From the IMG/VR virus record IMGVR_UViG_3300032093_000041, positions 32,001 through 96,000 of that record: a DNA stretch of 64,000 nucleotides. One strand, written 5' to 3'. Positions 2,857 through 34,610 of this stretch are shown piece by piece. Each line of letters begins with the position of its first letter. Positions within the stretch are counted from its first letter, which is position 1. The position numbers and the translations under genes were made by a program. Under the pieces are notes generated by a model. It was given only the letters and a program-made list of their open reading frames with translations, was not told where the DNA came from and searched no databases. The stretch comes from a virus.

Positions 2857-5800
2857 GTGCAGGATGATGTACTAAAAAACAAACTGCTAGGAATGGCATC
2901 TTCTAAAGATGCAAAACTAAGCACGGCTCCTTCTTCATCTTCTAAAAAAAATACAGACGATGAAGTCAAAAAAGAAGATAAACCAGAGAAGCCGTCTAAG
3001 GCTCAGTCTGAATACGAGCAGTTTTTAATTGACTGGGAGCCGTCAGACCCATTGCCGTTTTTCCCACCTGGAAAAATTATCAAGCTATGCCACCTAAGCA
3101 ATAACCCAATGGTTACTGGGTCGGACTATTACATAGACAACCCTGAAACAACTAAAAAAGCTTATAAACCTAATAAAAAAAGTATTGAAGAAGAGTTTTT
3201 AGAGGTTAAAAACCTTGGGCCAAAACTGAGTCGTGGTCTTTCTTCTCTTCTGGCAATGGTTGCTAGGTCTAGAGGGTTGTGGGTAGATGACAAAAATAAA
3301 TTGCGTTGTCCAGAAGGAACACCAGCTGCCAACCAATTTACAGACATAACCGGAAGTAACTGCTTTATACCTTCGCCGTCTGCCGCAGCGCAAAGTGGTG
3401 CTCGGGCAGCAAGAAGAGCATTTGGTACAGCAGAACAAATGGCAGCGGGCATGGGGCAACGTGTTGACCGCAGTCCATCTGGTCGCTCTAATGCTGCAGC
3501 AAGATATTCTCCTTCAGACTTGGCGATGCTTCAGGCAGGAATGGACATTGGCGGAAGAATGGCGATGCTAGGCGGAGCATCTCCAAGCTTGAGACAAACA
3601 CGAGGAACGGGAGGGGCATCCAAAACCGGTATGCCCATTTACTACATCGGCAAAAGAGAAGCGATAGCAAGAGGTAAGGACCTAACGCGCGCTGCGGCTG
3701 AATTAAAAAGACGATACTCGACAAGTGCGCAAGCTTCAGAGGCAATCGTTTACCCCCCTGGCTCACGGTTTGCAGGTCAACCAATTGGAGATGTTCTAAA
3801 TAAGGCTGACTTCATGAGGGCAATGGAAGAATTCATGCCCAATGTTGACCCCAATGAATTTTCTGAATACTTCGACAATGCAATTCCTGGTGTTTTGAGT
3901 CTTAACGACCGCAGAGCGTACGTGAGAATGTTCGAAGCTTTTTGGCAAGCAACAATTCAGCAGATGACCGAACAGCCAGACGCTTACAAAATCATCACAA
4001 CATTTGAGATGATGGATGACATTAACACTGCTGTAGAAATCCAGGTTGACCCGTTTTCCCCTAGTCCTCAAAGCGGAGGAAGACTGGCTGGTGTTGGTGC
4101 CATACAAATGGCTAGACAAGCTGGCCTTATGGCAGAAGGTGGCGCTCACGTAAGGTTCAAAATAAGCCCATTTGGCATGTGGCAGCAAGCCAATAATGTT
4201 GGGCGCAATATGGACAGCGACGGCTCTGGGTGGTGGGATAGCCGCGAGGGCAGGATGCATTACATCGCTGTTCATGAAACAGGCCACGTTGTCGACTTCT
4301 ATCAAAAACTGAAGGCTTTTGGATTAGACCCTAATGCTATGCAAAGATATACGGCTCCACAAAGAGTCGTTAACGTACCAGGTGCTGGTCCCTCTGTTCA
4401 GCAAGACAAATATAACGGCGCGTGGATAATTGACTGGTCACAAGTGTCGAATCCTATGAACAACCCGTTCATAGATGACATGATTCAAGCTGCTGCACGA
4501 CTAAAGGGCACCCAGTATACCGGTTCACGTTTTAGTGGCCGAAAAATAGACCTACAAGATGACATGAATGCTTTTTATGCAAACCTTGTTTGGGGCTTTC
4601 AAAACAACATAAACCACGACCCAAGCGACTTGCCACTTATGGCTGCGCTCGTTGGTGGCGCATATGCGACAGACTCCGGTGTAGAGACAAGAGCTGAGTA
4701 TTTTGTCTATAGGCGTTTATTTGGAGAACTAAGAGGAGCGCAATCAGCAACACCTGGTTTCAACCCTTTCAAAGACCAATTGCAGAGCGGTCCATTTGAC
4801 GCGACTCCAAGCGATATTGACTTGCGAACAACTTCCGCTAGAAAGAATCAGAGCAACAACCTGCTCACTCATTTCTTGGATGCATGGGCAACACAGGAAA
4901 GACAGAGAGCGTTAGAGCCTGGTGGAGCTTTGTATCAAATCATTCAGCAATTACCACCAGGGCAAGCCATACCGCAAAGCATTATTGAAGACTTTGAAAG
5001 AAACGTTGCCGCGGATACGTTGGCAAGACTGAACAAACTGGGGCAGGATGTTTTTGGTGTAGCCCCAAATCAATGGAACATCAGTGGTCGAATGGGGAAC
5101 ATCCAAGGCCCTTCGAGCAGACCACCATCACTTCATGCTCAAAGAGTAAGAACTGCTGTTCGCTCCAACAACATACGCACTACACGTGGCAAAAAGCAAC
5201 CCAGCGTCAGCTATGGAATAAGTGGTCGGATGGGAAACCCAGACCCAGTAAAACCACAGCGTCCTCGCGAACCAGACAACGGACCATTTACTGGAAAATT
5301 CCTGGATGTACTCCGTGGTTCATCTACGTGGAAACAATTTGCAAAAAAATACCGCGACCAAGAAGTTGTTTTCTTTGATTATGAGACCACCGGGTTTGGT
5401 GATGACGGCAACATGCCAGTGCAAATTGGCGCAGTAAAAATGAAGAATGGGAAAGTTGTTGAGCGTTTCAATGTCTTTGTAAACCCTGGAATACCGCTGG
5501 GTGATTGGGCCAAGAAGAATCTTAAAGACGACAAGGGGCAACCATTGACTGATGAATGGCTTGCTTCAAAAGCATCACTAAAAGAATCTCACGAAAAGCT
5601 ATTAGAGTTTTTTGGTGAAGATGCTTTACTGGGAGGTCAATACACTCCATTCGACCTAGAAGTTTTAGAACGAATACTTGGGCAGGTTGGCCTGGAGTAC
5701 AAACCGGCTGGGGTTATCGACTCAAAGGCAATGGCCGACGAAATACTGCCACGATGGACACCGGAAAACCCAGATGGTCCAACAATGATTGACCCAAAAA

Positions 5801-8028
5801 CTGGTGCTAAAAAAGGTTCTAATAGCCTTGGTCCTTTAGCAGAATACTTGGAAGTTGACCTGGGAGATGGTTGGCACACAGCCGATGCTGACTCTGAAGC
5901 GTCAGCAATGATTATTGAAAGAATGCTAGATAGAGCCGCATCAAGGCCAGACACACCAAGACGCATACTCGACGTTGACCAAGTGCCGCTAATTGTTCAG
6001 GAGCGCCGTGCCCAGTACGACAGAGACATGGCGGATTACTCAAAGAAAAAAGCCGAATACGACCAGTTAATCTCAGGACGCATGGGTGCTTCCCAGTTCG
6101 AGACAGCAAACGGTTCTGTATATACGCGCCAGCAAGATGGAACATTCCGCAGAAAAAAGAGCGCAATGCTCGGAACCACAATCGAAGACACCGACATAGA
6201 GTCAACATATGACAACACAGTATTTGTCGACGCTGATGATGCTTATTTGATTATGGCGCAGGGTCAAAGAGGCGCAATCATCGATAAAGATGGGGACCTA
6301 GTTGGTAGGCGATACGACGACACAGATTTGGACAGTGCAAAGTTCATGTCATTCCGCCGCGAGGGAGACGACTTCGATACTGCATATAAAAAAGCAGGTG
6401 GCACGGTTCAGGAAGAAAAAATACCAGCAGTTCGTATCAGCAGAGAACCGCAGAGCGGTTTAAAGCCAATTGAGTGGAACAACAAAGACAACAAATTTCA
6501 TGTCGGTAGCCCTGTTTCTTCGATAACCATGGAGACAAGCCAGCAAATATCTGGCAGGATGGGAAATCCTCAACGAGCATCTTTGGCAAAAACAGTGCAG
6601 GTTAAAGAGATGCTTGCCTCGACGAAAAGCTCTGTTGGTGCAGCAATGTCGGATGAGTACATTGATTCCTGGCCTGAAATTGAATCAAAGCTAAATCAAA
6701 GCGAAATCCTTGCTCGTAAGCCATTGACTAAATCAGAAGCCCGTCAAAGGACTAGAAGTGGAATTCAATGGTTTGCTAAAGCATTGCAAGATGCAATAGG
6801 TGGAGAAGGTAGAGACCCACAGCAAACAGTTATGTCGCCGTACTTAAGAGGCGTTGAGCTTGACTTCATGGCACACATAGCAGAAATGTCTGAAGATGAA
6901 CTTGAGCAAGAAGTAATTGATGCCATATCAGAGTTTCACGCCGGAATAGACCCTCGCCCGCATATTCAGGTATGGCAAGGGGACTTGACGCGCATTATTC
7001 AGAATGGCTACAAGACAACCCATCAGGTCGATAGTGACCACAGCAATAGTCCAATGAGAAAAGTCTATGAAGCAGAAATAGGCATACACCCCGACGTCCC
7101 TGACACAATGAGGCCAGCTTCTGGTTATATAGTTCATACAGATTGGCTCAACGCAGAAGACAAAGCTGCAGCAGATTTGGTACAGCTAGTCCCCGGCGCT
7201 GACCCTGAAGTCAATTTACCTGAATTCACTTCCCGAGGAAATGCGGAAACAATGCGCGGTCCTGTTCATGTATACGGCGGAGCTGAAGTTATATTACGCC
7301 CAGAAACTAGCGGAAGAACTTTTTATGGATATGGTGATTCACTGAGAACTAGGTTTACCCCTGCCAGCGTCGAGTCGGTCGACCCAGACGAAGTTGCTCG
7401 GTCGATTATTTTTGGTGGAACAACACCGGTAGAAAATATGCTCGATTTGCTTCATGGGAAATGGAAGGGTGACTATTCTTCTAGGCGCTATGAAGCAAAC
7501 AGCCCATCAAAAGAGTATTATGAAGCCCTCGTTGTTGGGGGATTTGATGCTGCCGACATAGAGGAAGTAATAATCCCTTCTCCAGAGGTAATCCCTGTTG
7601 AGGTGCTTTTTGAGTCAGAATCGTTGCCTGGGCAAAGAAACGAAGACAGAATTGCAAGGGGATACGACACGGACGCAACCATACCTTCTTTTTCAAAAAT
7701 GAAAGAATCTCAGTATTGGGTTGACAACGCCGGTGTAAGCGCCGAAGATGCCGAAATTATAGCTAGAGAAATAGCCAATAAAAAATTATTGTCCGTTGGT
7801 TCTAATGTTAATTTAGCCCGACTCCTTGCGGCAGAAAAAATCCGCAAACAACTTGAGGCTGCTGGAGCAAAAATGACAGTCCGCAACGATACGGGCGTGG
7901 ACTTCTTTAACCCAGACAGCTGGATTCAGGACATGAAAGACAAGTCAATGGAAGACGTTGCGGAGGCGCGTATGCGGCAAAGAATCATGTGGTCAATCAA
8001 AGACCAGCTAGCTAAGGCGACAGCATGA
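2857..8028 (+). CDS. Giant modular protein A (1723 aa): zincin-like region, DEDDh exonuclease, unknown module, DUF3626-like module
   Basis: HETGH at 4273-4287. ExoI FFDYETTG, ExoII PFDLEVL, ExoIII HTADADS. C-terminal GYKTTHQ...RPASGYI...YGGAEVIL...GDSL...YYEALVVG. Four ISGRM linkers. Confidence 0.85.
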   Translation: MQDDVLKNKLLGMASSKDAKLSTAPSSSSKKNTDDEVKKEDKPEKPSKAQSEYEQFLIDWEPSDPLPFFPPGKIIKLCHLSNNPMVTGSDYYIDNPETTKKAYKPNKKSIEEEFLEVKNLGPKLSRGLSSLLAMVARSRGLWVDDKNKLRCPEGTPAANQFTDITGSNCFIPSPSAAAQSGARAARRAFGTAEQMAAGMGQRVDRSPSGRSNAAARYSPSDLAMLQAGMDIGGRMAMLGGASPSLRQTRGTGGASKTGMPIYYIGKREAIARGKDLTRAAAELKRRYSTSAQASEAIVYPPGSRFAGQPIGDVLNKADFMRAMEEFMPNVDPNEFSEYFDNAIPGVLSLNDRRAYVRMFEAFWQATIQQMTEQPDAYKIITTFEMMDDINTAVEIQVDPFSPSPQSGGRLAGVGAIQMARQAGLMAEGGAHVRFKISPFGMWQQANNVGRNMDSDGSGWWDSREGRMHYIAVHETGHVVDFYQKLKAFGLDPNAMQRYTAPQRVVNVPGAGPSVQQDKYNGAWIIDWSQVSNPMNNPFIDDMIQAAARLKGTQYTGSRFSGRKIDLQDDMNAFYANLVWGFQNNINHDPSDLPLMAALVGGAYATDSGVETRAEYFVYRRLFGELRGAQSATPGFNPFKDQLQSGPFDATPSDIDLRTTSARKNQSNNLLTHFLDAWATQERQRALEPGGALYQIIQQLPPGQAIPQSIIEDFERNVAADTLARLNKLGQDVFGVAPNQWNISGRMGNIQGPSSRPPSLHAQRVRTAVRSNNIRTTRGKKQPSVSYGISGRMGNPDPVKPQRPREPDNGPFTGKFLDVLRGSSTWKQFAKKYRDQEVVFFDYETTGFGDDGNMPVQIGAVKMKNGKVVERFNVFVNPGIPLGDWAKKNLKDDKGQPLTDEWLASKASLKESHEKLLEFFGEDALLGGQYTPFDLEVLERILGQVGLEYKPAGVIDSKAMADEILPRWTPENPDGPTMIDPKTGAKKGSNSLGPLAEYLEVDLGDGWHTADADSEASAMIIERMLDRAASRPDTPRRILDVDQVPLIVQERRAQYDRDMADYSKKKAEYDQLISGRMGASQFETANGSVYTRQQDGTFRRKKSAMLGTTIEDTDIESTYDNTVFVDADDAYLIMAQGQRGAIIDKDGDLVGRRYDDTDLDSAKFMSFRREGDDFDTAYKKAGGTVQEEKIPAVRISREPQSGLKPIEWNNKDNKFHVGSPVSSITMETSQQISGRMGNPQRASLAKTVQVKEMLASTKSSVGAAMSDEYIDSWPEIESKLNQSEILARKPLTKSEARQRTRSGIQWFAKALQDAIGGEGRDPQQTVMSPYLRGVELDFMAHIAEMSEDELEQEVIDAISEFHAGIDPRPHIQVWQGDLTRIIQNGYKTTHQVDSDHSNSPMRKVYEAEIGIHPDVPDTMRPASGYIVHTDWLNAEDKAAADLVQLVPGADPEVNLPEFTSRGNAETMRGPVHVYGGAEVILRPETSGRTFYGYGDSLRTRFTPASVESVDPDEVARSIIFGGTTPVENMLDLLHGKWKGDYSSRRYEANSPSKEYYEALVVGGFDAADIEEVIIPSPEVIPVEVLFESESLPGQRNEDRIARGYDTDATIPSFSKMKESQYWVDNAGVSAEDAEIIAREIANKKLLSVGSNVNLARLLAAEKIRKQLEAAGAKMTVRNDTGVDFFNPDSWIQDMKDKSMEDVAEARMRQRIMWSIKDQLAKATA

Positions 8029-8348
8029 AAAAGGTATTGGTTGGGAAAACTGGAGACGGAGGCAAGCTCTACTTTGTCATAGGCGGCAAGACAGACGGCA
8101 TTTATCAAACCAGAAACAGAATGACTGAAATCAGTTTTTGGGATTTTGTTGACAAAAGACCAGATTTAGAAGAACTAACAATAACCAAAACACAGAAAAT
8201 GCTCTGGTCAAGAAATGTCTCAAATGCGGAGTGGGTTTCCCGCTTTATGCCACCGCAATGGAGGGTTAGCGAGGATGAAAACCCATACAACCTCAAAGTG
8301 AGTCGCGCATTAGATACAATAAGAACTACGACAGATTATCTGTTCTAG
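8025..8348 (+). CDS. Small protein coupled to giant protein A
   Basis: ATGA overlap with the stop of 2857..8028; 107 aa. Confidence 0.7.
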   Translation: MKKVLVGKTGDGGKLYFVIGGKTDGIYQTRNRMTEISFWDFVDKRPDLEELTITKTQKMLWSRNVSNAEWVSRFMPPQWRVSEDENPYNLKVSRALDTIRTTTDYLF

Positions 8349-8374
8349 AATTAGCCCTGCCGCAAGGATACCTA

Positions 8375-9019
8375 GTGGATACTTTTGAGAAATTTCTCTC
8401 CAATAAAATTATAATTGTAGACGAAGAAAAGGCGGGCGGACCTGCCGGTGCTGTCATCCCCCAGGAAAGACTTACTGGCGACGTACTAAAAGGTCGGGGG
8501 CCCAGAAGGGGAAATCTCGAAAGACTCCTTAGATACTGGCGTCCAATAATGAAAAAACCGGGCGGCTTCAGGCGTTGTCGCGTAATCCTGGCAGACCATC
8601 CTGAGCTTTACCCACTGGAGAATATCTGCGCTTGGTTGCATCATGAAACAACGGGTCTATGGCCTAACGAGGGATGCCACCACCCCGGCATGAAGAACTG
8701 CAAAAAGAAGCTTAAAAAGGGCACCCAGGGCAGCCTTTGGACAGACAAAGACTTTGATGACAGGATGAGAAAACTTACATCTAGGGCGACCAGAAAGAGT
8801 CTACAATTTTCTGGTGTAGTAACCCCCGATGAGCCGTTTGCGCCAGTAATCACTAATGAAGATTACGACCATGCTTTTAAGGTTTTACAAGATTTCTTTG
8901 AAATGGAACCAGACTTTTGCAAAATGCTCATAGACGAATCCAGCTGGGAGCATACGCATGGTTTTGAAACTCCTAAAATTAAGATGGTCCCGGTAGATGA
9001 AGACAGTATCTCTTTCTGA
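8375..9019 (+). CDS. Hypothetical head-region protein with Cys/His motif
   Basis: LLRYWR...GGFRRC...NICAWLHHETTGLWP, a motif type I recall from actinophage head-region proteins. Confidence 0.7.
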   Translation: MDTFEKFLSNKIIIVDEEKAGGPAGAVIPQERLTGDVLKGRGPRRGNLERLLRYWRPIMKKPGGFRRCRVILADHPELYPLENICAWLHHETTGLWPNEGCHHPGMKNCKKKLKKGTQGSLWTDKDFDDRMRKLTSRATRKSLQFSGVVTPDEPFAPVITNEDYDHAFKVLQDFFEMEPDFCKMLIDESSWEHTHGFETPKIKMVPVDEDSISF

Positions 9020-11057
9020 TTGCTGCAGCGAAAAAGGGCTGCAACCAATAATCCAGACTCGGCACGTGATGCCAGAGTTAGCGCTGACGCACGTCAACGC
9101 ATTTGAAGAGCCACTACCCAAAGACTCCAGTTATCGTGCTGCAGTTCTGTACAAGTGTGCAATGCAGCGCCGAGGCGGACGTCAGGGGCTAGAAGTAAAA
9201 GTTGGTTCAATCACGTCGACAAGCCCATTCTTACAAGGGGTTCAATCCGTTGGTTCAATGCTTGTCCCTGGAGACACTGCCCCACTGCGAAGCCCAGTAC
9301 GGTCAGGACTAGCCAGGCTTGTTACCCCCGGTGGTGTTCGTGGTGCCAACCCTTTTGCTTATGGCAAGCCAAACCGTGGCTACAGATGCCCAGAGGGTTA
9401 CCAGTTCGGCGGAAGATTCACTGACTCACGTTTTTCTACATGCGGCAAGCAGTTATTTGACCTTCCAGGCACGATTGGTGCCGTAATAGGAACAGCGCTT
9501 AGGCGGTCTGCAGATTCTTTAATTGACGGTTTTAAACCCACGACAAGTCGCGTGGGTGCGCTTTCTGTGTCCGGAGACATAATTCAAAGCAGGGCACCAC
9601 AGATACCTAGAGTATCTTCCCTCAATAAAAGAGTAAGAAACTCCAATACAGAATCAATCGTCTCTGCAATGTCGAGCGTTACGGAACCGTACAGAAGAAT
9701 GGTGCGTCGTGATGGATTTGTTCTTGAGCCAGTTGTTAGCAATGCTGTGCTACGAACGATTCCTGACAACAGAGACATGGAAGGTGCAACGTTCATACAG
9801 ACAGCTCTTGAGCCGAAGACGATTGGACAAGACGAACTAGGTCTACTTTCCAACACAGGAATTCAGAAGCTTGTCTATGTCCTTAATGGTGGCTCAACCC
9901 TTAATATTGAAAAAGCCAGGCCCCTGACTGTTGGTGAAAGACGCAAACTCGGTAAAACCGTGAATGTCGCAATGAGGGCCGACAACAGTTCCGACCCAGC
10001 AGCAAGATTGAGACTTGTAGCAGAAGAAATGGGCGACGCTGTTAGATATGAAGAGTCTTTCGAGCAAATATCAAACCCCAACGAAATAGTTGTGGCAAAG
10101 ATTCCTGGCTCGAACGTTAAAACACGTGTGAAAAGATGGGTTTATGAAGCGTTTTACGCCAAAAAACCAACTAAAAAAACGCCAGCAGAAGTAGATACAG
10201 AGGACGGCGACACGCTGTCCCCCGGCAAAAAAATTGACAATCTTTCTGGAGCCGTACGTCACTTAAACGCAGGCGGTTCTTTAGAAAATATATCTAGCGC
10301 AATTCGCGTAGAGGCTCTAAGACGTAGTCGACTTTACAAGACTGGGAAACTCAAAGAAGGAGTAATTCTTCACGAGCGTGCAGATGGACAAACTGTCTTT
10401 GAAATGAAACCGAAAAAAGACTTTGAGCATCTAGGTGCAGCATTTGCATCAGAAGTGCAAAGGTCTCTAGGTCTAATCGCGCCAAAAGTGAGGGTTGCTG
10501 GAAGCGGAAATAGGCGTCCGTATCTTATTGGGGAAGCACAGGATGCTGCCACCAAGGGCTCGCAATCACGTTCAGACGGTCTTAAAAACGTCGCTGCAGA
10601 GGATTTGGTTGGACTGGCTATTGCTGACTGGCTTACCGATACATACGGTAGGTCTCCGGCGAATATTGCTCCGGTGAACATTAGCGGCTCAATGCGTGCT
10701 GTCTCATCAATAAATCCGATGGCTGGTTTGCCGACATCAAATGCTCGAAATGTAAGAGTCAGAATGGATTCTTCGATTGATGATTTTTTTGGCCAGCAGT
10801 TGCGCGAAATGTATCGCAAAAATTTCGAGCGCTTGCAGGCTGAGCAACGCAAAAAAGCTTTACAAATCATTGCTGCATATATAGAGCGTGCGCAAGATAT
10901 AGACTTTGCGGACATGAGAAGGCGTCTAACTTTAGACGGTTCTTTATCTCAGGCAGAAAAACGACACCTTGGAATTATCGAAAACCTTTTTAATAGGCGG
11001 CTTGAAACGCTTCGCACGTCGCGGGCAGCATTTATAAAAGTTCTCGGTCTAAAGTAA
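8997..11057 (+). CDS. 686-aa protein with RCP..FT..C motif and degenerate HipA/PI3-4-kinase-like C-terminus
   Basis: LEVK at 9189; RCPEGYQFGGRFTDSRFSTC at 9384-9443; SEVQRSLGLIAPKV...IADWLTDTYGRSPANI. Confidence 0.75.
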   Translation: MKTVSLSDCCSEKGLQPIIQTRHVMPELALTHVNAFEEPLPKDSSYRAAVLYKCAMQRRGGRQGLEVKVGSITSTSPFLQGVQSVGSMLVPGDTAPLRSPVRSGLARLVTPGGVRGANPFAYGKPNRGYRCPEGYQFGGRFTDSRFSTCGKQLFDLPGTIGAVIGTALRRSADSLIDGFKPTTSRVGALSVSGDIIQSRAPQIPRVSSLNKRVRNSNTESIVSAMSSVTEPYRRMVRRDGFVLEPVVSNAVLRTIPDNRDMEGATFIQTALEPKTIGQDELGLLSNTGIQKLVYVLNGGSTLNIEKARPLTVGERRKLGKTVNVAMRADNSSDPAARLRLVAEEMGDAVRYEESFEQISNPNEIVVAKIPGSNVKTRVKRWVYEAFYAKKPTKKTPAEVDTEDGDTLSPGKKIDNLSGAVRHLNAGGSLENISSAIRVEALRRSRLYKTGKLKEGVILHERADGQTVFEMKPKKDFEHLGAAFASEVQRSLGLIAPKVRVAGSGNRRPYLIGEAQDAATKGSQSRSDGLKNVAAEDLVGLAIADWLTDTYGRSPANIAPVNISGSMRAVSSINPMAGLPTSNARNVRVRMDSSIDDFFGQQLREMYRKNFERLQAEQRKKALQIIAAYIERAQDIDFADMRRRLTLDGSLSQAEKRHLGIIENLFNRRLETLRTSRAAFIKVLGLK

Positions 11058-11058
11058 A

Positions 11059-14000
11059 ATGAAACAAATTTCTCTTGTTAAAGACAAAATAGACGGGTCC
11101 CCTTTTGCTGTCCTCCTGATAGACAAAGGTTCTGTCACGGCATATGGCTCTCCTGGACAAGGAGAAGACTGGGCAGAATGGGTCAATAGTCAAGAAACAT
11201 CCGTAGAAGAAATACAAGATGTTCTAGATGTTCGCCTGGTTGCTGAACCATCAATTCCAGCAAAAAAATTTAACGAGAGCTCAATCAGTAGCTACTTAGG
11301 TCAAGAAGCAATGGACTTGCTAATGGCAGAGTTAAATAAAAAAGCTCTGCTAGAAATAGTTCAAGTTAAGTCAGAAAGTCAGCCGCAGGAGTATGACGAG
11401 GAAGACCTTCCGGACTACACGCCCATATCGGTGTGGCCGTTGTCTGAAATATCGCTGGCTTCCATAGATGTTGCATACAAATCTCAGCTTGCTGATTACA
11501 AGGCTAAAGCTTTCAACGCCGACAGAAACAGGCGGGCGCTTGCTCTTGAGGTGAAGTGGGCTAGAGCTATTTGGGATAACGACCGTCAAGGATGGCGTTG
11601 CCCACCAGAGACCACCAATGGCGGCCAGTTCACTAACAGAATGGGTCTTGGTTGCACCACTGGTCTTGTTCGACGTCTTGGTCAATCTCTGATGAGCATT
11701 GAAGACAGAAATAAACTTCAGATGCAGCTCCCAGGACTAGAAGACCCGAGAGGTTTCCTGTATCGCTCTGGTTCATTAATTGACCAGCGAGCAGAAACTA
11801 GACAGCGTGAATTTGCTGACCGACAAGAACGTCGCGCAGCACGCCGCGTTCGCAGTCTTATCGAAAAAGAAGGAAAAAAAGAACAAGAGCGTTTAGCTAA
11901 AGAAAACAAACGCAAACATCGTTCTGGGGAATCTCTAAGAGATATTTATTCAAGTTTTACGCCAGACGCAAGCAGAGTGTCTCGCGCACGTGCTGCTGGA
12001 GCAGTAAAGCTTCGTCGGTTTGCATCCAACGTAGAGCAAGAATCACTCAGGAATATTGGGGCGAGTCAACAGCGCAGAGACCGCAGGGTTAGGGACGTAT
12101 CAGAGGAAAAGCTAGACAGTAAGAAGATACGCAAGCTCCGCGATTTTGGTGGAAAAATACCTGGTTCAAAACTTGGAGGCTATGTCCAGTACGACAAGAT
12201 GATGGCAGACGACAAAGGGCAGGCTGTCGACATCAATGGCGAACTCATGGTCCCTCGTGTTCTTGTGGACATGGATGAAATGCACTCTAATCCATACTAC
12301 GGAAGAGAATTTTTAACAGATGATTCCGGTAATCAAGTAGAAAATTTCCATGCCAATCATAAGTGGGTCACCGTAGAAGAAGTACTCGCTATGGCGTCTA
12401 TCAATCGCGCGACCAAACCAGCACATGACTGGATTGAAATGCGTAAGGGGCGAGGTTTCCCTGGTGATGAAACCATTGAGTTTGTTGAAGCAAAAGAACT
12501 TCGTAAAATTCAAAAAGACAATGGATTTATTGGAGTTCGGTCAAGCTTAAAAGACAAAGGCAAAGGCCGTTTTGACGGAGACACTCGCGGCAAAGGCAAG
12601 AAGAAGACAAAACCAGCGCAAGGCGGCTCCATCGGCGACATGGAATTTGAGCCAGATGAATTGCCGCCAACCGTCGCAAAAAGGTTTGGAGATGCATGGC
12701 GCGATAGCAGAAAACGTCTTGGTTCGTGGATTGCAAACCTTGACCCCTTGCTAGATGAAGACCAGAAAACACGTCGCGAAAAGCGTCGCCGCCAAAAAGC
12801 TTCAAAATCTAAAGACTCGAGCGCCATAAACGGTGCAAACATTCTTCAGTCTCTATTCTCTGATATTGATGACCCGATAGAGGCAACCGTGCGATACGCA
12901 CAACTGTCCAACTTTAAAGAACCAGAGTTCAGAGACTGGTACGACTACACCACAAACAACAAACCAGTACCTGAGCGTCGCGAAGATTGGAACTTTGGAT
13001 TCAATAGTGTAATTGGCGAACCGACACCTCATTTTGCTCGGCTCAAAAACCTTATAGACGGAATAGTGTCAGAACACGCCGCTGGCGTACTGATTACAGC
13101 GGACGACTCAGAAGACCCCGATATAACCAAATTTATTTTTCAAGATTACGACTTCAGTACAAAGTTTAGGTCTGGTCAAATTGGGAATGTATACAACGTG
13201 CGTGTTGTAACAAGGACTGATGGCGTTGAAGAAGTACGACAAATAGCTGTAGATTCAATAAGTCTAAATCGCTGGACGGATAATCCATTAGACGAGAACA
13301 GACAACCAATTACGGCAACTGATGCAGGTCTATATATGCTGTGGTCAAACACAACGTTTTTAGATGTTCCGGAAGATGTCGTAGAGAGAGCAGCTAGTGG
13401 GCAAATGCCTACGTTTGAGCTCGTAGAGCTTGCTGCGAAACAATGGGTGGACCCAGGGTATCACGGTGCTCAGCCGCCTGCTTTCTATTATGACCAGGCC
13501 ACTAAATGGCACGAACATTACAGGGTTATCGGCTTCAACCAAAAGGGTGCTCCGCTATATATCAAGGGTGCAGGCGGGAGGGGTCGGACCGGGTCAACGT
13601 CGGTACATATCCCTGGCACATCAAATTCTGTCGTAGACACGAGAACCGGTGGTCTTATTTCTGGCCGCATGAGCCAAGAAACAATAATCACCCCAGAAGG
13701 TCAGCGAGCCCTAGACGACCCTAATGTGAATATTTGGACTGGTGAACAAAACTTTCTGGTGCTTGACGGAGGCCCTGCACCCGGGCGCGGACGCCGGCGT
13801 CGTCGCACATCTGGTCCTACGCCCCAGTCTCCTGGTGTTGTATCGCGCTTCCTTGATGGAGAAGGTCGCCAACTAAGTAGAGAACGCCGCAGCGCAAGAA
13901 GGATGCTAAAGGGGCGTACACCAAAAGACACACGCCCGATACGTCAACGCATAGAAGCTGCGCTGTATGAGAGGTCACGTCGTCGGTCAGGCGAGCCAAG

Positions 14001-18797: not shown

Positions 18798-18799
18798 AT

Positions 18800-22603: not shown

Positions 22604-22806
22604 TTGAGCTATTTGCCACCGGGCCAGGTGGGAGACAAAAAATGTTTAAAACCCATTCCGTCATGGTTGGAAATTCTCCTGTCTACTTTGGATACATACT
22701 CAGGAACGGCGAAAAAGGTGGAATAATTAACTTATCGTCCGTTGTTGCCTCTAATCCAGTTTGGACAGTCGTTGACGAATTTATCGCAGATACTAAACCA
22801 GAGTAG
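22600..22806 (+). CDS. Small protein coupled to giant protein C
   Basis: GTGA overlap preceded by GAGGTGG; 68 aa. Confidence 0.65.
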   Translation: MIELFATGPGGRQKMFKTHSVMVGNSPVYFGYILRNGEKGGIINLSSVVASNPVWTVVDEFIADTKPE

Positions 22807-22826
22807 AAGAAATCTTTACAAAACAC

Positions 22827-25800
22827 ATGACTGATACGCAGAACATAGACATTGAGCAAAAAGACGTTCTTGGGGCTCCGCGCAGAGTGCGCACTACCGA
22901 CCCGGACGTTTTCTCTGACCCAGAATCGGCCAGAGTTGCTGCGCGACGTCTTGGATGTATTGGGATTAGAAGATATCTAAACCGCTCAGGCGGAGAGTCA
23001 TGGATGCCATGCACCAATGAGTCCGACTACAGAAAATATAGCGGGATAGGTGTTTCTGGTCGTAGGTTCCGACGCCAGCAGCTGGAAAGAGATATCAGGC
23101 AAATCACCGGCCGAGGCAAGCTTGCAAAGAAGACTTTAGAAGAAGCTGTCGAAACGAAAGCAAGCAAAAAAAATAACTACACAAAGCCGGAATTGCGCGA
23201 GAGAATCAAGCAGCGAATTATGGCTGGCTCTGAGGGTGGAGCCCCCGGACAGTGGTCTGCAAGAAAAGCGCAAATGCTCGCTCAGGCGTATAAAAAAGCA
23301 GGTGGCGGATACAAGACTGGCGGAAAAAGCAAAACGCAACGTTCGCTTTCTTCGTGGACTAAAGAAAAATGGACCACGAGCGACGGTAAAAAAGCTCGCA
23401 GAGGTAGCTACACCAGAAGATACTTGCCAGCTAAAGCGTGGTCAAAGCTGACACCGGCGCAAAGAGCGGCTACCAACAGGAAGAAAATACAGGGTTCTCG
23501 CAGCGGAGAACAGTTTGTCCCTAATACGGATGCGGCAAGAACGGCACGCAAACGTTCAGTTAGGGGCGTAAAACACGTTGAGTTTTATGACGGCATCGAA
23601 ACAAAATCAATCGATGGTCTGATAGAGGAAAAGGCATTATCTCGTCGTTCTTCCAGAAGAACTCTTAGAACTCCTGGTGCGTTGCGTCCTAGATTGGGAG
23701 CAACCGGACAGGATATGAATCCCGCAACAGCGAGAGACGAAGACCTAGACGGCTTAGTTCTTGAAGGAATTCCCACAATTAACCGTGGTCGCGGTGTAAT
23801 TGACCCAACCCCGGGCGGAAGACCGAGTCGGTGGGTGCCAAGAATGCGGCCTCAAAGGACGCAAGCGCCAACACCGGAAGAAAAACCTCAGCCTCGTAGG
23901 CAGTTGCTCCAGCGACCAGAAAGATTGCCAAAACCAAAGGCTGAAAAAGTACGCGAATCTAAACTTAATTGGCTCCCAGAAGATGCTGATAAATGGACAG
24001 AAGACGATGCCCAGAGGTTGCTCGATACGCAAAAAGCTTCCGGTCTTTCTTACGGTGAATTTGCAAAACAGAACGGACTTTTTGCTAACGACGTTCGTGA
24101 ATCAGTAGAAAGACAAAAGTCTCGACGCAAAAAGCGCATCAGTGCTTTTCGCAAAAATAACCCCAAACTTTTTGCTGCTGTTAACAGTTTTGGAGCTGTT
24201 AAAGACGAGGCAATGGAAGCGGTTTCTAGAGGAAAAGTTAACAACTGGGGCTCACTTGTTTCATGGGCGTTTAAAGACAATGACTTAAAGCGCCAAAGAC
24301 TAAACGACAGGGCGGTAAACGACCTATTTAACAATGTGTCAAATGGTCTTGACCCAGACGGAAAGTCAGATGTAGTTCTTGGTTTTGTGCCGTCGCGCAC
24401 GAAACAAGGAGAAATGACTAAGACTTTTGCCCGAGCAAACAATCTTCCCGATGGTTTCGTTAGTAGATACAAGACTCCGAGAACAGCCATACAGCCAGCT
24501 AGAAGAATTACTTCCACGGCCGAACGAGCAGAACGTCGTGGAGAGCGACGCGTTGGAAGAATAAGCAGAGACATAGAGGCAACAGCTAGGGCGTTTGAAA
24601 GGTTTGACGCTATTTCCGGCCGCATGGGTGGGATATCAGGACGCATGGCAACACCGTCTGGCCCAGACTCACAGTGGACAAACCAAGAAAAAGCACAGTG
24701 GAAAGCCGGTCAGTGGCGTAAGAGGTTCCTCTTCGATGAAGCCCTAAGTACTGCAAGGGTTAATTTATCACCTGAAATGCAGGCACATATTGCCAAGTAT
24801 CCTGATGCCGCAACTGCAGCAAGAGCAATCCTTGACCTATCTGACCAAGATTTAGACAAGCTGTTCAAGGGTCATAATGACGCGCTCAAAGCAGCGAACG
24901 TAGCCATTAAACCTCCAAGAAAAGATGAACTTCCGCTTCTTCCGTCTGAAGTTGCTGCAGCAGCACAAATCAAACGTCCTCTCGTTAGAAGCTTCCTTGA
25001 TGAGTACAAAAAAATGGCACCGAATGGGACTTTGTCGCGTCTTGATGTTGACGTACTCTCTAATGAAGACATTGAAGAACTGTTTAATCGCTACATACTG
25101 CCAGAGATGGTCGACCCAACAAAGCTCGATGCTGCTGGTGTAATTGATGTTGCCCAGAGAATTTCTCAACCGGGCCAAGAAAATTCACCGCTGCGCCTGC
25201 TGGACAATCTTGCATATATGGCCGGCGACGATGCGATGAGCCTGGAAGCAAGAAGAAGAGTTCTTCAAGAAAAACTTGCCGCTGGTGTTGCTCAGGGAAC
25301 CATGACCCCGGCTCAACAGCAGGCAACACAAAATGCGCTTGATGCCCTAGATGAAGAACTAGCAAAACTAATAGCTGACTACGAAGCTGGAAAGCCTTTA
25401 GATTCGTCTATACCGTTGCAGCCTTTAGACGACCCGAGGCAAATGCCAAGATGGGCTGGCGGACGTAGGGCGCTTAGTTTTGAAGACCCAGTAACAGCAG
25501 ATGATTACATCATGTTTTTGTTGGAAAACAATGACATTGGCTTCCACCCAGAATGGGGTCCAATCACCAAGCCTGAATGGGAGAACTGGTCAGAAGACAT
25601 ACAGGAGAGGGCCGCAGAAGCAGAACGCGTCTATAGAGAAGGCGGAGAACTAGAAGCTAAAGACGCCATAGACGCTTTGAATGCAGAGTATCAGCAATGG
25701 ACACAGGTTGGTCTTGAGGCAGGATGGATTCAAGAGCCAGAAGAAGACGAAGAGTTTGAAGAACCGCAGCCTGAGCGCCCAATACGTGATGAGTTTGGTG

Positions 25801-28800
25801 TTCTCGATGAAGATTGGGTATGGAACACAGAACACGGTTCCCCCGAAGAGCTTGGCGTAACCGACGACCCAGCAACGTGGGCTCAACACCCGGACAACGT
25901 CGAAGACGACGGCGTAACCCTAATCCCACTTGACGAACTAGAAGAATTGATTCTCAAGTATGCGCCGAAACAGTTTCAAGCTGACCTTCTCGAAATACTA
26001 AAGCCAAGTGAGTGGACAGACCCACACAACGGTCATATCGACCAAAGATACATTGACCTCCCGCCCGAATTAATTGATTATTTTGTCGGACAAGCAATGG
26101 GAACAATGCCGCCGACCCCATCAAGCTCAGGACAGATGCCAACACCAAACCTTGGTGGAATACAAGGTGATGGAGTTGGACTTTCCGACCCGGGCGGACC
26201 AAGACTTCGCAAGGGCATACCTTTTATACCAAGGAACATCAACTGGGACTCTGCATTGCGCATGTTCCAGCGAATTCTAAATAAACAAGGAAAACAAGCA
26301 TCGTCAAAAGGCTCTTATGCAACTGCAAGTCGCCAGTATGACCCAGCACTTGGTGTTTATGACGACTGGGGTGCACTACAGCTACAGAACCAGTTTGTAG
26401 AGGCTGCAAAGGAAGCCCGCGAGCTTTACGTTACGGGAACTGGACAAGATTCTCGCAAAGCTCGAGAGCAGGTTTGGAACCTTCTTCAATCAGGAAGAAC
26501 TCCGCAAGAAATAAGCCATGAACTGATTATTTTTGGTGCAGACCAGCCGGACACAAATAGGCCTCCTCAGCCAATTGATTTGCGTGACTTGGTTAAAGCT
26601 GCAGCAACACAGTACGCAATAGATAACAACATCAAAACTTCAGATGTAACAAAACTTCTCAATGCAGCAGACCAGGCTTTCAATTCTGATACAGCGCGTC
26701 AAGAGGCGTTTAGGAGAAGCCAGCTTGAGCGCTTGCGTGACGACCTAACCCGTCTATTTAGCGGCCAAAGCCCACAACAAATCATTAGCTCTATTGATGG
26801 TCTGATTGAAGAAACAGAAAGAAAGAAATGGTTTGCTGACCAGGCATACAGAATTGAACGCGGACATGATGCTCGGTTAAGAAAAGCCGCTCTTGACCTT
26901 GCTGAGTCATATCCTGTTCCAACCGCTCGTCGCGCAATATTTATGGAACCAGATGGGACCATAACTGACAGCCCAAGCCGTAGAGCAAAAGCCCTCTATC
27001 AGGAGCCATACACTGGCGAAGTAACTGACGACGACACGAGGGGATGGCCTCAGGCGTTTGATGAAGGTTATGACCCAACACAAATAAGTCGGGCACGCCA
27101 TGCTAACCGCATATATCGCTGGTGGAGACAAAACTGGGGTTACATCGAGCGAAACGAAAATGGTGAAATTACTCGCGAATATGTAGGTCCGCTGCAGGGA
27201 ACACTAAAGGCTCATCAGCTTCACGCACGTAAATACGGAAACGAAGGTCTTGCTGGAACAACTGCGTATGCAACAAGAACAGCAGATTCTCGAGTCCAGC
27301 AGCTTCGTGAAGTAAAAAGAACCATAGAGGGGGCGCGGCAAGAGGGTCGAGGCATGGGAATATCTGGCTTCATGCGAAGCGGTGGGCCGAACCTTTACGA
27401 TGAATATTCACGGAAAGCAGCTCGCGTACTTGTTTCGGGACGCCGCAAAAACAAACCTTCATCAATGCTGCTTGGCTACGATTCTGACGAAATGCCAATT
27501 ACAAGAGCAATGAGGACGGCATTTTCTGGAGGAAGTGGGAAGTTCCTTGGAGCATCTAATGAGCATTCATTTGCTGCATTAATGAACCCCGAGAACGTTG
27601 ACTACTTTAAACATCTATCACCGGTGGAGAAAGACTACTTTAGAGCCCTCTACTCAAATCCAGACTTTGTCGTTGCCGTATCAAAAGATGTGACTGCACC
27701 GCTGCCGAACAGAACACGCGGTGCTTCCACCGTCTCCCCAGACGAAGCAATAATAAATGCATTCCGTTCGTCTATGGATGCAACGCGACCAACGATTTCT
27801 GGTCAGATGGGATTGAGGAGAACGCTAAGCAACGCTAGCAGAGTTGCAAGATACAACCCTGAGAGATGGCAGCGAGAATATTTAACAGCTAGAAATAGTT
27901 TCCGGATGACCTCGCCTTTCAGGGGCAAGAAAAAGCAGAACTACAAGCTTGAACAAATAACTCTGAAAGACAGCGTTTTTAAGCCAGTAGAAGGTCTTTA
28001 TCTTGTAGATGCAGATACAAAAAATGTTATCGACGGACCTTTCAAATCAGATGAATTAGGTTTATTGGCCAGTGAAAAAGCCAAGGGCGCAGAAACAAGC
28101 GTTATATCTAAAAATTATCCTCGTCCATGGGAGCAAATGCCTGAGATTCAGGAGCTAATTGCTAACGGCGTGAGTAATGAATTGCGTGATTTTATGACGC
28201 TGGACTCACACAAGATAAGCGACATACGCAGCACTGTTTACGACACTATTGAAGGCAAAATTAACCAATATGCACTAGACCTTGATAAGGGCGTCCCACA
28301 GAAAGCGTCAGATACGGCAATATTTAGTCGCGACCCTGATACGGGGGCGCTAATGGTTCTTCTTATACAAAGAGCGTTCGGTCCACACAAAGACGATACC
28401 GGTGCATGGGTTCTCCCTGGAGGGTTTGCTGACCCTGGCGAAACCGCACTAGAGACAGCATTGCGTGAACTAGAAGAGGAAGTAGGACTAAAAGTAAGTC
28501 CGACAGATGCGCGCGTTAAGCAGATAGGAACAATAACAGCACCAGACTGGGATGTGCGCTTTACAAAAGGCGTAGAGGTCAGTGGTACTGCGTTGTTTGT
28601 ATCTCCAGACGCTGCCTTTAAGGCTGGAGATGACGCGCTGAGAGCGCAATGGTTCCCTGTTCAGGATATAGCGGACGGAAAACTTCCAATCGGGTTCGGA
28701 CATGTCGCGTGGATTAAGAACGCTATGGCTCTGGAAGTTGATGACCCGGCAAACTATGGTCCTGACTACGAAAGTTTAAGAACAGGTTTAGACCGTGTTG

Positions 28801-31800
28801 AAAGAGCAACGCGTGCTAGGAATAAAGAACTAATTGAAATTTCAAACAGCTGGCGCAAAGAACTGAATAAAGGCAGAGCAAAAGCCGACAAGATAAAACT
28901 TTTTGACGAAAAAAACCTTGGTTCATATTCCGCTTGGGAACTAGCTCCATCAGACGACATGATGAGGCTCGGCTCAATATCCCGCATGAGGCTAATGGGC
29001 AGAGAGGTAACTCCAGAATCTATTGCCGCGGACGTAGAAAGAACCCGTGAAAACCGTCTATCCAGAGTTGGTTCAAATTTTGGTCCGTCAATATCTGGAC
29101 GCATGGGTGAAGGGTTTGAAAACAACATGAACGACATGCACTTAAGAGGCATGTCGTCTGACGAAATAAAAAATAAGCTGCGCCAAGAAAATGGCGTCAG
29201 TGAAGAGGATATAAATCGTTACGTTCTCTATAGCGGAATACAGTTGTCTAAAACTTCAGACAATGTTTCAGCTTCAGAGCGAAAAATGTTTGACGAGATG
29301 ATATCCAGCGGAGGCTCAATTAGAGACTTGGCAAAAAAGAACAAAATATCTTTTACGGAAGCAATGGATGTTGTTGTAAAAGTAGAGTCTTCAATCGGCA
29401 ATAGAGAGCCGGCCATAAATGCAGCATTGCGCAAAGCAATTATGAATGATTCTTTTATTTCTGGAGCAGAAAAAGCGGCGATGGTGCAGCGACTACATGG
29501 AGCATCGCGTGCCTCTGTAGCAAAATTTATGGGTATGTCGGTGGAGCGATACGGGGAAGTAGAAGCATCGATAATAGACAACCTAAAAGCTCGCAACCCG
29601 AAAATGTTTAAGTCTGCCGGTGCATGGTCTTCAAATCCAGAATCCTTATTTGCAGAACAAGATATTTTTATGCGTTATGTTCATGGCAAGCAGCCACTAA
29701 ACCGCATAGCAGAAGACCTTGGCATGACCGAAAAAATGGTCGATGGCATAGTAAAGCGATACGCCAGATGGAAAAATTCAAATGCTCCTCTAGAGAGAGC
29801 AGCAATCAAACAATCAATTTCGCAGTTTGGTTCAGCATTGAACGCTGGTGAAATTCAAATGATGCGTCGCTTGTCGGACGGAGAAAATATATTCCAATTC
29901 TCCGAAAGAACAAACATGCCGAAGAAAGCTGCAATACGCATGTATAACTCGGCAATGCGTAAAATGCATATGGAATCCGGAGTTTCTCCTCTTTCAAGAA
30001 ACTTTGACGCCAACATATATAAGGCGATACCTAAAGAGTGGATTTCTCCGTCATTCTTGTTCGAAAAAAATCCACCGAAGGCAACTAGGGCAATATCTGG
30101 CAAAATGTCAGACGTAGCAAAGAGCGCTAACAAATTTAACGCAGAAAAACGTTCTTACATGACATCCCCTATGTCTGCTTTGCGCGAAAAAGTAAAAGAT
30201 ATTCGCCAGGAAATGAGAGACCAAATACAGAATCTTTCATCTACGTCGGCTTATATGCATCCAGTATTTGGAGGGCAAGAAGGCATAGACAAAATGGCGG
30301 CGCTCGGTGCTTACATAAAAAGGACAATAGATGAATCTGTCCTAGAGGCTGTCGTGGATGCCGCACGAAAGTCAGGCTCACGGTTTTCAGGAGATAGAGA
30401 AGAAATTGCTAAGCGAGCAATGAATAAAGCTCGCAAATCTTTGATGGAAGATTTGTGGATGAAGAGAGAAATGATTGATTTTTCTCTCGACATGCATGAA
30501 ATGATTGAATCCGCATCTTGGCCATGGAGAATGTGGCAGCCAGACAGTCCTGAATGGCAGCGCCATAGGAACATCCCAGAGCTGATGGAAACATACAAAA
30601 CGAACACGCCAAAGGGTCGCCAGGCATATATAAATGCCGGCTTCTACATGCCGCTTGGCGATAATGAGATGTTTGAATTCCTAAATGCTGTCGAGGAAAA
30701 CAATTCCATTAGCGGGAGAATGTCAAACCCGAGACAGTGGGCTCAATCTAGAGACCTATACGACATAATTGGAGTTTCGGAAACAGCAACAGACGAAGAG
30801 CTAAAAAAAGCCTTTAGAGCTAAATCTCGCGTGCTTCACCCAGACGTTAACAATTCTCCAGATGCTACTGAGCAATTCAAAGAACTTGGATTCGCATGGG
30901 AAACACTAAGCAATAGCAGGTTAAGAAACCAATACGATTCATGGCGAGCAGGACGAACTTCACGCCAATCTTCTTCGGCGAGACCAAATAACACAGACAT
31001 TGCTGACGATGACATTGACGTAAGTCAATACACAGACCAAGACCTATATTTATATGACGATAAGGGTCGCCTATGGCCGCGGCATAACGCAAATAGAGAC
31101 GACTGGCCTACCGCTCCGTTTACTCAGTCAACCGTGTTCCCGCAACGCCAATGGGTCGAAAAAGAATTTGACGAATGGTCAGACTGGACTCGCCACGGCA
31201 TACAGCCATCACGCCCAGCAGGAAGTGCTCTATGGGGTGAGGGTAGAGGTACGCGAGACCTTGGTGGTGACGGTGAGATTGATGACGATGGACAAGGAGG
31301 ACCTGGCCCATCTTCTGGACCTCGTGGGCCATTTAATCCAACTTCAGGTAGCCCTGCTAATGCCTACTTCGTAGAACAACAAGTTAGGCGTGACCTTGGT
31401 CCGGATGCAACTGACGAAGAAGTGCTAGCTGAGCTAATCAGGAGAATGACCGGTGGTGGGCGTGGCCCATCAATGAGCTCTTCTCCTGGTTCAATATCGG
31501 GTCGCATGTCATCGTCGTTCCCTCCTCTTGATGACAGCGTTCAAAAACGTCTTGGATTGCAAAATCTTCCTAGTTCATATGACCAATCTGAACTTACGAA
31601 ACAGCATCCAAAACTTACGTTTGATGTTTACAAAGCCAACATTGGCGAACCATCTGTTGAAGTAACCACAACATTTGGCGGAAAGTCAAATGTCAGCAAG
31701 TATCGCTACGACAACGTTTATCGCCCCATTATTGATGCATTGGTAGCAGGAGTACAACGCCCTACTGGAGGAAAGCGTAAATTTGTTTCAGTTGGTGGGC

Positions 31801-34610: not shown

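Follow-up and report, generated by a model that had tools for sequence, protein, structure and literature searches.

A lineage-specific junction peptide in the giant head-region proteins of an uncultured phage, a candidate signal for polyprotein processing

The subject of this analysis is a short peptide, ISGRM, that recurs at the borders between modules in a set of giant proteins encoded among the head genes of an uncultured tailed phage. The 64,000-nucleotide stretch analyzed (the window) comprises bases 32001-96000 of one 105,678-bp virus record, IMGVR_UViG_3300032093_000041, which encodes a contractile-tail phage (~106 kb) with a tail sheath, baseplate wedge, collagen-like fiber and large terminase. 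Its gene order is terminase, portal-MuF, S78 protease, giants and capsid protein, and the region from protease to capsid gene is referred to here as the head block. Five modular proteins are encoded in this block, four giants (giants 1 to 4) and one protein of 686 amino acids (aa), with ~25 enzyme-sized modules altogether. Our results support the peptide as a real, selected inter-domain linker, with its enrichment, the selection acting on the peptide, its location in linkers, its lineage-wide co-variation and the shuffling of modules at the joints all directly observed. Beyond this, we propose with a probability of about 0.7 that the junction peptide is an endoproteolytic processing signal of a virion-linked polyprotein system. 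Persistence of the peptide at dozens of disordered joints, its replacement by another version in each lineage and its presence in lieu of gene boundaries are together best accounted for by a cleavage site whose reader co-evolves with it. An earlier note on this DNA had suggested a protease site of this kind, at the Arg-Met bond or one adjacent to it, with a repeated capsid-docking or translocation tag as its alternative.

ISGRM as a linker between modules

Twelve exact copies of ISGRM are present, all in frame within the four giant open reading frames (ORFs), and the peptide occurs nowhere else in the six frames of the window. From composition, 0.005 copies would be expected in the giants and 0.018 in the whole proteome of 33.7 thousand amino acids (kaa), while 2000 residue shuffles of the giants gave a mean of 0.008 per shuffle. 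The looser pattern [IV][SAG]G.M is found 20 times in the giants, against a mean of 0.48 and a maximum of 5 in 2000 residue shuffles. When the 33.7-kaa proteome is scanned, one-mismatch variants of ISGRM are confined to the head block, and the pattern [ILV][STA]G.M[GSAT] has 18 matches in the head block (12.0 kaa) versus a single match in the remaining 21.7 kaa. The residue after the Met of the exact copies is Gly in six, Ser in five and Ala in one, and the general form of the site is h-[STA]-G-x-M, then G, S or A.

The 12 copies on which the earlier note had built its case, and the ten variants that it had added to them, all exist where it had placed them (Table 1). As sites, two of the variants are doubtful: ISGRE at 32856 falls within a module and shows no conservation among orthologues, and ISGRI at 33687 is a degenerate tandem copy. 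Two sites extend that list. One is ISGSM in the 686-aa protein (10680-10694), which relatives have as ISGSM, ISGAM or VGGRM, and the other, SSGRMG, comes after the S78 and DUF6321 domains of the protease protein (residue 322), to the left of the window. The further claim that nothing similar is encoded to the right of 34.6 kb holds for the window, but motif-like sites do occur in a putative tape measure protein encoded to the left of it.

The codons for Ile, Ser, Gly and Arg vary freely among the copies. Across 85 orthologous site codons compared with genome G001, whose protease is 82% identical, there are 41 synonymous and 8 amino-acid differences, which agrees with the earlier argument from codon usage. 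Because the codons vary while the peptide stays, the constraint acts on the peptide, and a reading of the copies as a DNA repeat was rejected since their codons differ.

Placement of the peptide between domains, also part of the original proposal, was examined in two ways. First, the giants were cut in silico after the Met of each site and the pieces scanned against Pfam. The domains recognized (RNase_T, NUDIX, the HTH array, DnaJ, Zeta_toxin, GNAT and DUF3626) each fall within one site-delimited piece, with no Pfam domain in the scanned pieces of the giants split by a site; together with a module bearing an HExxH motif, they give the set of four giants several unrelated domains. Second, AlphaFold2 models were made of giant 4 residues 2560-3400 (from a 17-sequence alignment) and of giant 1 residues 1-746. 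The giant 4 model has three segments with a predicted local distance difference test (pLDDT) score below 50 between confident domains (local residues 68-74, 317-339 and 766-841), and the ISGRM copies at local residues 69-73, 331-335 and 767-771 lie within these three segments. In giant 1, IGGRM (aa 231) sits in a low-confidence segment, 224-257, and the chain is again of low confidence from 744-746, in the ISGRM at aa 742. Hence all five modelled sites fall in segments of pLDDT<50. At the first two modelled sites of giant 4, the Gly is invariant and the Met invariant or at least 90% conserved in the 17-sequence alignment, while the flanks drift.

Lineage-specific versions in related phages

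Relatives of the protease protein number 281 among IMG/VR contigs, and the giants encoded downstream of them carry recurring h-[STAV]-G-x-M-[GSA] peptides with lineage-specific residues. We compared whole head blocks of this genome (G000) and of seven further genomes (G001-G007). A blind 3-of-5-residue over-representation search ranked the linker first among motifs in five of the first six head blocks, and the cross-matrix of motifs is near-diagonal, each having at most 4 matches in other genomes and mostly 0-1. ISG[RK]M is present in 14 copies in G000 and 13 in G001, ITG[AS]M in 10 copies in G004, P[VAST]G.M in 16 copies in G003 (the GPVGxM lineage), and R[LF]SSG in 22 and 19 copies in G006 and G007, respectively. 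Among 23 giant homologues from public protein sets, the versions found are ISG.M, I[AS]G.M, VSG[RK]M, LSG[RK]M, DSG[AR]M (10 copies), R[LF]SSG (about ten) and GFASxS (10), where the GFASxS giant is P0022 and the DSGAM giant P0023.

These dialects are spoken at homologous joints. In an alignment of giant-1 orthologues, the site that follows a conserved 'WN' reads ISGRM, ITGKM, LTGAM, VSGFM or ISGHM according to the dialect of the genome, and the other sites behave alike. Since related phages have their own versions at homologous joints, protease sites fit much better than a docking tag. All dialects have just one feature in common, namely small residues after an invariant hydrophobic one (M; L/F; F). 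Aligned in two ways, the dialects fall into different registers, so that the scissile bond may be R|M or M|G/S/A.

In the hSGxM dialects the Met is the most conserved residue, as it would be if it served as an internal translation start that yields nested products from the giant genes, and nested starts are known in the protease and scaffold genes of other phages. This explanation was rejected, and we give it next to no weight. Shine-Dalgarno-like 4-mers are found at -16..-5 in 0 of 19 motif ATGs versus 21 of 86 real gene starts, the four residues upstream of the Met are conserved as peptide and not as RNA, and the RLSSG and GFASxS dialects do without Met.

Modules can be followed from one dialect to another. 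One module of ~290 aa, at aa 3331-3612 of giant 4, recurs in three other giants with 54-57% identity, and its borders are ISGRM/VSGRM here, ITGKM/ISGNM in L099, FASRS/FASRS in P0022, and RFSSG and LSSG/RFSSG in P0021. As the module is conserved while its borders differ by lineage, modules move as cassettes and adopt the local linker. Shuffling between giants and lineages exactly at the linkers would also be expected of a by-product of module joining, that is, of a recombination scar or a copy-pasted flexible linker spread by cassette shuffling with no reader at all. We consider such an origin very improbable. The codons are scrambled while the peptide is kept, so that DNA homology is not conserved, a module in a new lineage bears the linker of that lineage, and across 17 orthologues the flanks drift around a G that is invariant and an M that is invariant or at least 90% conserved.

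The protease protein of G003 and of G006/G007 continues in frame into the next giant as a fusion. The conserved C-terminal domain with which the separate 785-aa protein of the present genome ends is followed in G006/G007 by a linker, which thus occupies the position of a gene boundary in other lineages. In lineage G005, giants are absent (none above 1619 aa) and the head block (L098, 26500-46499 of the record) is free of recurrent linkers; the capsid protein of this lineage is 70% identical, and the S78 protease and an HExxH protein are kept. The lineage is a natural reference for the contribution of the linkers. We considered G005 as a split-gene control and rejected it, since its smaller proteins share only N-terminal leaders with the giants and their gene borders are therefore not mappable onto sites.

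The putative tape measure is a protein of 1715 aa encoded on the - strand to the left of the window (L001:11666-16810, genome coordinates), a label that rests on position and size, with zero family hits to the protein. It holds all three loose motif matches found outside the head block. In this genome it carries a degenerate RLNARMG, doubled near aa 44-58, and LAGAMG at 554, and the homologous N-terminal site reads RLAGRMG in G001, NLTGAMT in G004, RLTGAMG in G002 and [RK]-LSSG in G006 and G007. The number of hSGxM and LSSG peptides per tape measure is 3 and 0 in G001, G002 and G004, 1 and 0 in this genome, and 0 and 2 in G007. The putative tape measure thus co-varies in register with the lineage dialect, and its sites would give a way into the processing of tape measure proteins, for which an explanation has long been lacking.

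Restriction of the motif to virion-linked proteins, the tape measure included, and its position in disordered linkers, where short linear motifs are typically found, would also suit a motif that is never cut. Such a multivalent short linear motif might dock or thread the giants and the tape measure, with the inside of the capsid, the portal or the lumen of the tail as possible binding places, or it might set pauses in ejection. This is an improbable account of the data. The candidate partner examined, the capsid protein (70-91% identical across the compared lineages, with a similar delta domain), stays conserved across complete changes of the motif. A single tag in each protein would be enough, yet sites occur at nearly every domain boundary, and one of them takes exactly the place of a stop codon and new gene start in other lineages. 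Conserved tandem double sites, moreover, are typical of cleavage redundancy.

Candidate enzymes and the processing model

If the junctions are cut, two phage-encoded enzymes come into question as the reader. Within the probability given above for cleavage of some kind, a somewhat larger part would fall to a zincin module of giant 1, a somewhat smaller one to the S78 prohead protease, and a small remainder to a host or other enzyme.

The S78 protein has a Peptidase_S78 domain at residues 30-175 (Pfam E=3.5e-11, above the curated cut-off; phrog_80, head maturation protease) and a DUF6321 domain (Pfam E=1.2e-29). Its catalytic His and Ser motifs are intact, and WGHNW and EWSIGY are conserved in all lineages. 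As an HK97-type prohead protease it would act inside the prohead and cut after Met, between ISGRM and G/S/A, freeing the cargo before DNA entry. Its gene heads the block, it is the N-terminal partner of the polyprotein in the fusions of G003 and G006/G007, and SSGRMG occurs in its own protein beyond the protease domain and DUF6321. The residue after Met is small, like the P1' residue of assemblin-fold proteases, for which the cuts fall between K and S in HK97, between A and S in herpesviruses, and between E and A/G/S in T4. There is also precedent in SPN3US and phiKZ, where prohead proteases cut many internal and ejection proteins at a short motif; the A-x-E motif of the phiKZ/SPN3US enzyme, gp245, is reported to recur in many head-internal ejection proteins, with several products per precursor (PMC5694885, PMC10052503).

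Several observations run counter to S78 as the reader, and we regard it as possible but doubtful. Between lineages whose linkers are unrelated (ISGRM, GPVGxM or RLSSG), identity of the S78 domain is still 67-95%, and the surroundings of its catalytic motifs are near-invariant. In nine lineages, the capsid protein has an invariant G[RKQ]NGANM (aa ~118-126; window 35290-35315) followed by [IVPA][STA][PA] where the delta domain is predicted to end, and this peptide does not differ between ISGRM, GPVGxM, RLSSG and linker-free lineages. It is a candidate for the S78 maturation site of the capsid protein, with the Met at or beside the scissile bond. The linker motif was not found at this capsid site, which has NGANM instead, and the likely maturation site thus ignores the dialect. 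The site after the protease domain is absent from G003, G005 and G006, and the putative tape measure carries the motif, though tails assemble outside proheads. No usable data on S78 site specificity were found in the literature searched. Of the protease-site reading in the earlier note, the linker, the selection on it and its clade-specific versions have therefore stood up, while S78 is not established as the cutter. In the RLSSG lineage, the S78 protein is without DUF6321, and a DUF6321-like product is encoded instead by an ORF of its own immediately after the capsid gene (L101:27368-27694, L104:28448-28882).

The zincin module is the first cargo module of giant 1 and has sites on both sides. 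In 16 orthologues H473, E474 and H477 never vary, conservation of E610 and E614 is at least 90%, and the HExxH motif is conserved in G001, G002, G004 and G005. Identity of the module is 68% in genomes that share the junction motif and 33-35% in those with a related one, and the module was undetected by BLASTP in G003 and G006/G007, which have another class of motif, and in the linker-free G005. Other HExxH modules are present in G003, G005 and G006/G007. The module resembles M34-type zincins (the catalytic domain of anthrax lethal factor, LF, and the Pro-Pro endopeptidases PPEP-2/3) in having HExxH and a downstream Glu, though its fold similarity to them is weak and it has no sequence-family hit. 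Comparison of the model with Protein Data Bank (PDB) folds by VIA-align gave 1yqy (Z 6.9, 178 aligned, root-mean-square deviation 3.9), 3dl1 (Z 5.7) and 4l7a (Z 5.6), and the best structural neighbours, lethal factor at Z 6.9 and Pro-Pro endopeptidases at Z about 5, came from the LF/PPEP-type matches 1yqy, 2l0r (Z 5.0), 6fpc (Z 5.0) and 9g0j (Z 4.8), all below the caution line of Z 8. Foldseek found no match to the model in the PDB at E<=0.001, and Pfam gave no peptidase hit for the module, even scanned alone at E<=0.1, and no PF18818-type hit. A long helical insertion is present in the module.

LF/PPEP-type zincins read extended, specific sequences, and an invariant hydrophobic residue followed by small residues is what the S1' pocket of a zincin would select. 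A zincin reader would accordingly be predicted to cut before the invariant hydrophobic residue, between R and M in this genome. As the zincin diverges in step with the motif while S78 stays at 67-95% and the capsid protein at 70-91%, the zincin is slightly favoured as the reader, and the suggestion in the earlier note that this HETGH zincin might be the cutter is at least as good as its S78 counterpart. In the RLSSG lineage, the protease-fused giant also contains an ArdC/MPTase-like HELVHWTGH (L101:3-8216, aa ~2560; L104:2-8338, aa ~2605) besides the HEIAH module of the giant-1 counterpart; a second zincin of this HELVHWTGH type is absent from the present genome.

From these patterns we infer a model that joins cleavage, an enzyme and a bond with packaging and delivery. 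The five proteins would be chains of independent modules, in which a conserved N-terminal leader is followed by enzymes (zincin, exonuclease, Nudix, HTH array, J domain, zeta-type kinase and GNAT). A phage-encoded, site-specific protease would cut the junction peptides and free ~25 products, and the putative tape measure would carry the same signal. Signal and reader would co-evolve, leaving one dialect per lineage at all joints seen in the head block and tape measure. The zincin may be active while the particle is being assembled or, alternatively, once it has been ejected into the next host. A fuller version, which we advance tentatively, is that in these freshwater tailed phages a travelling zincin cuts both the tape measure and ~25 co-delivered effectors, with the junction code rewritten genome-wide together with the enzyme and processing perhaps taking place only after ejection. 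If this version is true, new effectors could plug in as cassettes once flanked by the peptide of the lineage.

Several points weigh against processing as proposed, and against the zincin in particular. The phage is uncultured, and no cleavage product has been observed. The zincin fold match is weak (Z<8) and the Foldseek search empty, and since G005 has an HExxH module but no linkers, the zincin may serve another function. Its divergence in step with the motif may reflect fast evolution alone, and the small residue after Met fits an S78/assemblin-type protease too. A zincin active in the cytoplasm of the producer cell would sever cargo from leaders before packaging and would need an inactive state. 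The tape-measure counts are small, in a protein rich in Gly, Ala and Met.

The closest published system is that of the polyvalent proteins, for which delivery with the DNA is predicted and an embedded zincin proposed as the processor (Iyer, Burroughs, Anand, de Souza, Aravind 2017; PMC5512222). Zincins of the MPTase type are the hub domain of this family. The giants are like them in standing beside virion genes, in their unrelated effector domains (zeta kinase, GNAT, nuclease, Nudix-like, HTH) and in their portal-MuF neighbor. They differ in the junction peptide, the lineage dialects and the tape-measure sites; the word 'linker' occurs 0 times in the text of PMC5512222. The block described here is headed by an S78 protease, whereas that paper reports only C-terminal assemblin-like peptidases in a few polyvalent proteins. 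Phage P1 packages large enzymes of the Dar/Ddr type (DarB, DdrB) in its head, and some of these undergo proteolytic processing beforehand (PMC5512222). Unlike the giants, each is a single protein processed in a single event, with no junction code repeated along it.

As in T4, phiKZ and SPN3US, a prohead protease gene lies in the head module and a short motif recurs, but the protease is of the S78 family here and of the gp21 type there. The site of T4 gp21 is L/I-x-E. In those phages the motif also marks capsid and scaffold cleavage, whereas the capsid protein here is without the linker. Further points of difference here are the up to ~11 sites per protein at every domain border, a motif that shifts between close lineages, and its occurrence in the tape measure. 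The polyproteins of RNA viruses (picornavirus 3C, potyvirus NIa, alphavirus nsP2) offer a parallel that would work alike without being related, with unrelated enzymes in a chain separated by short sites. In these viruses an embedded, virus-specific protease reads the sites, and sites and protease co-evolve in each lineage. In contrast, the present case concerns a DNA phage, bacterial translation and virion-linked cargo rather than replication machinery.

No description of a junction-peptide code, lineage-specific or otherwise, was found in the literature searched. If the junctions are cut, a handful of giant genes would yield dozens of separate enzymes, and bacterial viruses would have their own equivalent of the polyprotein strategy known from eukaryotic RNA viruses. 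For polyvalent proteins this has already been proposed, but it is not known to have been tied to a readable site code. The code parses thousands of uncharacterized residues into discrete candidate effectors and would explain cassette exchange between phages. The natural matched pairs of protease and site (ISGRM, ITGAM, GPVGxM, RLSSG, GFASxS and DSGAM) might serve as orthogonal cleavage tools.

Organization of the head block

The head block runs for ~34 kb from the protease gene to the capsid gene, wholly on the + strand. After the protease come a 496-aa PepSY protein, giant 1, small ORFs, the 686-aa protein, and giants 2, 3 and 4 (Table 1). The PepSY protein is syntenic in every related head block, with an identity of 57-86% in G001-G007.

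Table 1. Genes, modules and junction sites of the head block, in window coordinates
Feature	Position	Strand	Remarks
Prohead protease protein, C-terminal part	2..925	+	785 aa whole; start 1432 nt left of window
PepSY-domain protein, 496 aa	1092..2582	+	Pfam PepSY; without linker motif
Giant 1, 1723 aa	2857..8028	+	leader 1-235, zincin module 236-746, 46-aa spacer, RNase_T exonuclease 793-1076, two more modules
IGGRM, degenerate, giant 1 leader/zincin boundary (aa 231)	3547..3561	+	relatives: lineage-type site 10-35 residues downstream of conserved GGR
Zincin module, giant 1 aa 236-746	3562..5094	+	HETGH at 4273-4287; candidate processing protease
ISGRM, giant 1 aa 742, C-terminal end of zincin module	5080..5094	+	relatives: ITGKM, LTGAM, VSGFM, ISGHM at homologous position
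ISGRM, giant 1 aa 788	5218..5232	+	exact copy; aligned in giant-1 orthologues
ISGRM, giant 1 aa 1072, after exonuclease module	6070..6084	+	exact copy; aligned in giant-1 orthologues
ISGRM, giant 1 aa 1231	6547..6561	+	exact copy; aligned in giant-1 orthologues
686-aa head-block protein	8997..11057	+	single ISGSM site
Giant 2, 2450 aa	11059..18411	+	one site only
ISGRM, giant 2 aa 867	13657..13671	+	kept in G001
Giant 3, 1267 aa	18800..22603	+	DUF3626 in last module
VAGRM, giant 3 aa 104	19109..19123	+	ISGRM in G001
ISGRM, giant 3 aa 272	19613..19627	+	exact copy
ISGKM, giant 3 aa 735	21002..21016	+	ISGRM in G001
Giant 4, 3927 aa	22827..34610	+	~11 modules: NUDIX, HTH array, J domain, zeta-toxin-type kinase, GNAT-like
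Tandem ISGRM-GG-ISGRM, giant 4 aa 596 and 603	24612..24647	+	doublet kept in relatives
ISGFM, giant 4 aa 1512	27360..27374	+	[IVL]SGFMR in other clades
ISGQM, giant 4 aa 1657	27795..27809	+	listed variant
ISGRM, giant 4 aa 2089, after NUDIX module	29091..29105	+	exact copy
ISGKM, giant 4 aa 2423, after HTH module	30093..30107	+	listed variant
ISGRM, giant 4 aa 2628, 10 residues before J domain	30708..30722	+	G invariant, M at least 90% in 17 orthologues
ISGRM, giant 4 aa 2890, before zeta-kinase module	31494..31508	+	G and M invariant in 17 orthologues
ISGRM, giant 4 aa 3326, N-terminal border of shuffled ~290-aa module	32802..32816	+	exact copy
VSGRM aa 3613 and degenerate tandem ISGRI aa 3621, giant 4	33663..33701	+	C-terminal border of shuffled module
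ISGSM, giant 4 aa 3785, after GNAT-like module	34179..34193	+	listed variant
Major capsid protein, HK97 type	34936..36279	+	phrog_10 E=4e-58; without linker motif

The tandem doublet of giant 4 is found in other dialects as ISGRMTSISGRM, ISGNMG..ISGNMA and ITGKMSGSM. If both sites of the doublet are cut, a conserved 7-residue spacer peptide would be implied.

The nearest cultured relatives are actinobacterial myoviruses, namely Gordonia phages of the GMA6/ChisanaKitsune type and Brevibacterium phage Cantare, whose capsid proteins are 45-48% identical and in which the protease adjoins the capsid gene. Among 80 related loci examined, none has the capsid gene within 10 kb of the protease. A megablast search of giant 4 against cultured phage records gave zero matches. 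Upstream of the protease, the portal is fused to a Mu F-like domain, PF04233 (L002:8189-10471; genome 28189-30474), a domain linked in published work to head-packaged effectors.

Leader segments are conserved at the N-termini of giants 1 (window 3150-3400, aa ~100-175), 2 and 4, and they are the sole parts common to the giants and the smaller head-block proteins of the linker-free lineage G005. The invariant residues in the giant 1 leader are K118, L120, G121 ... R150, C151, P156, N159, Q160, T162, D163 and C169. It is possible that these segments form a capsid-targeting or anchoring domain.

The protease protein is arranged as the S78 domain, DUF6321, Cys-rich and Pro-rich segments, and a C-terminal domain. 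Its region of aa 400-700 contains a Cys-rich CGCGGSCGG...CGGSCGGSC and a duplicated Pro-rich segment of ~50 aa (PRMPRTDEPIEIPEEIP...), after which the conserved C-terminal domain follows.

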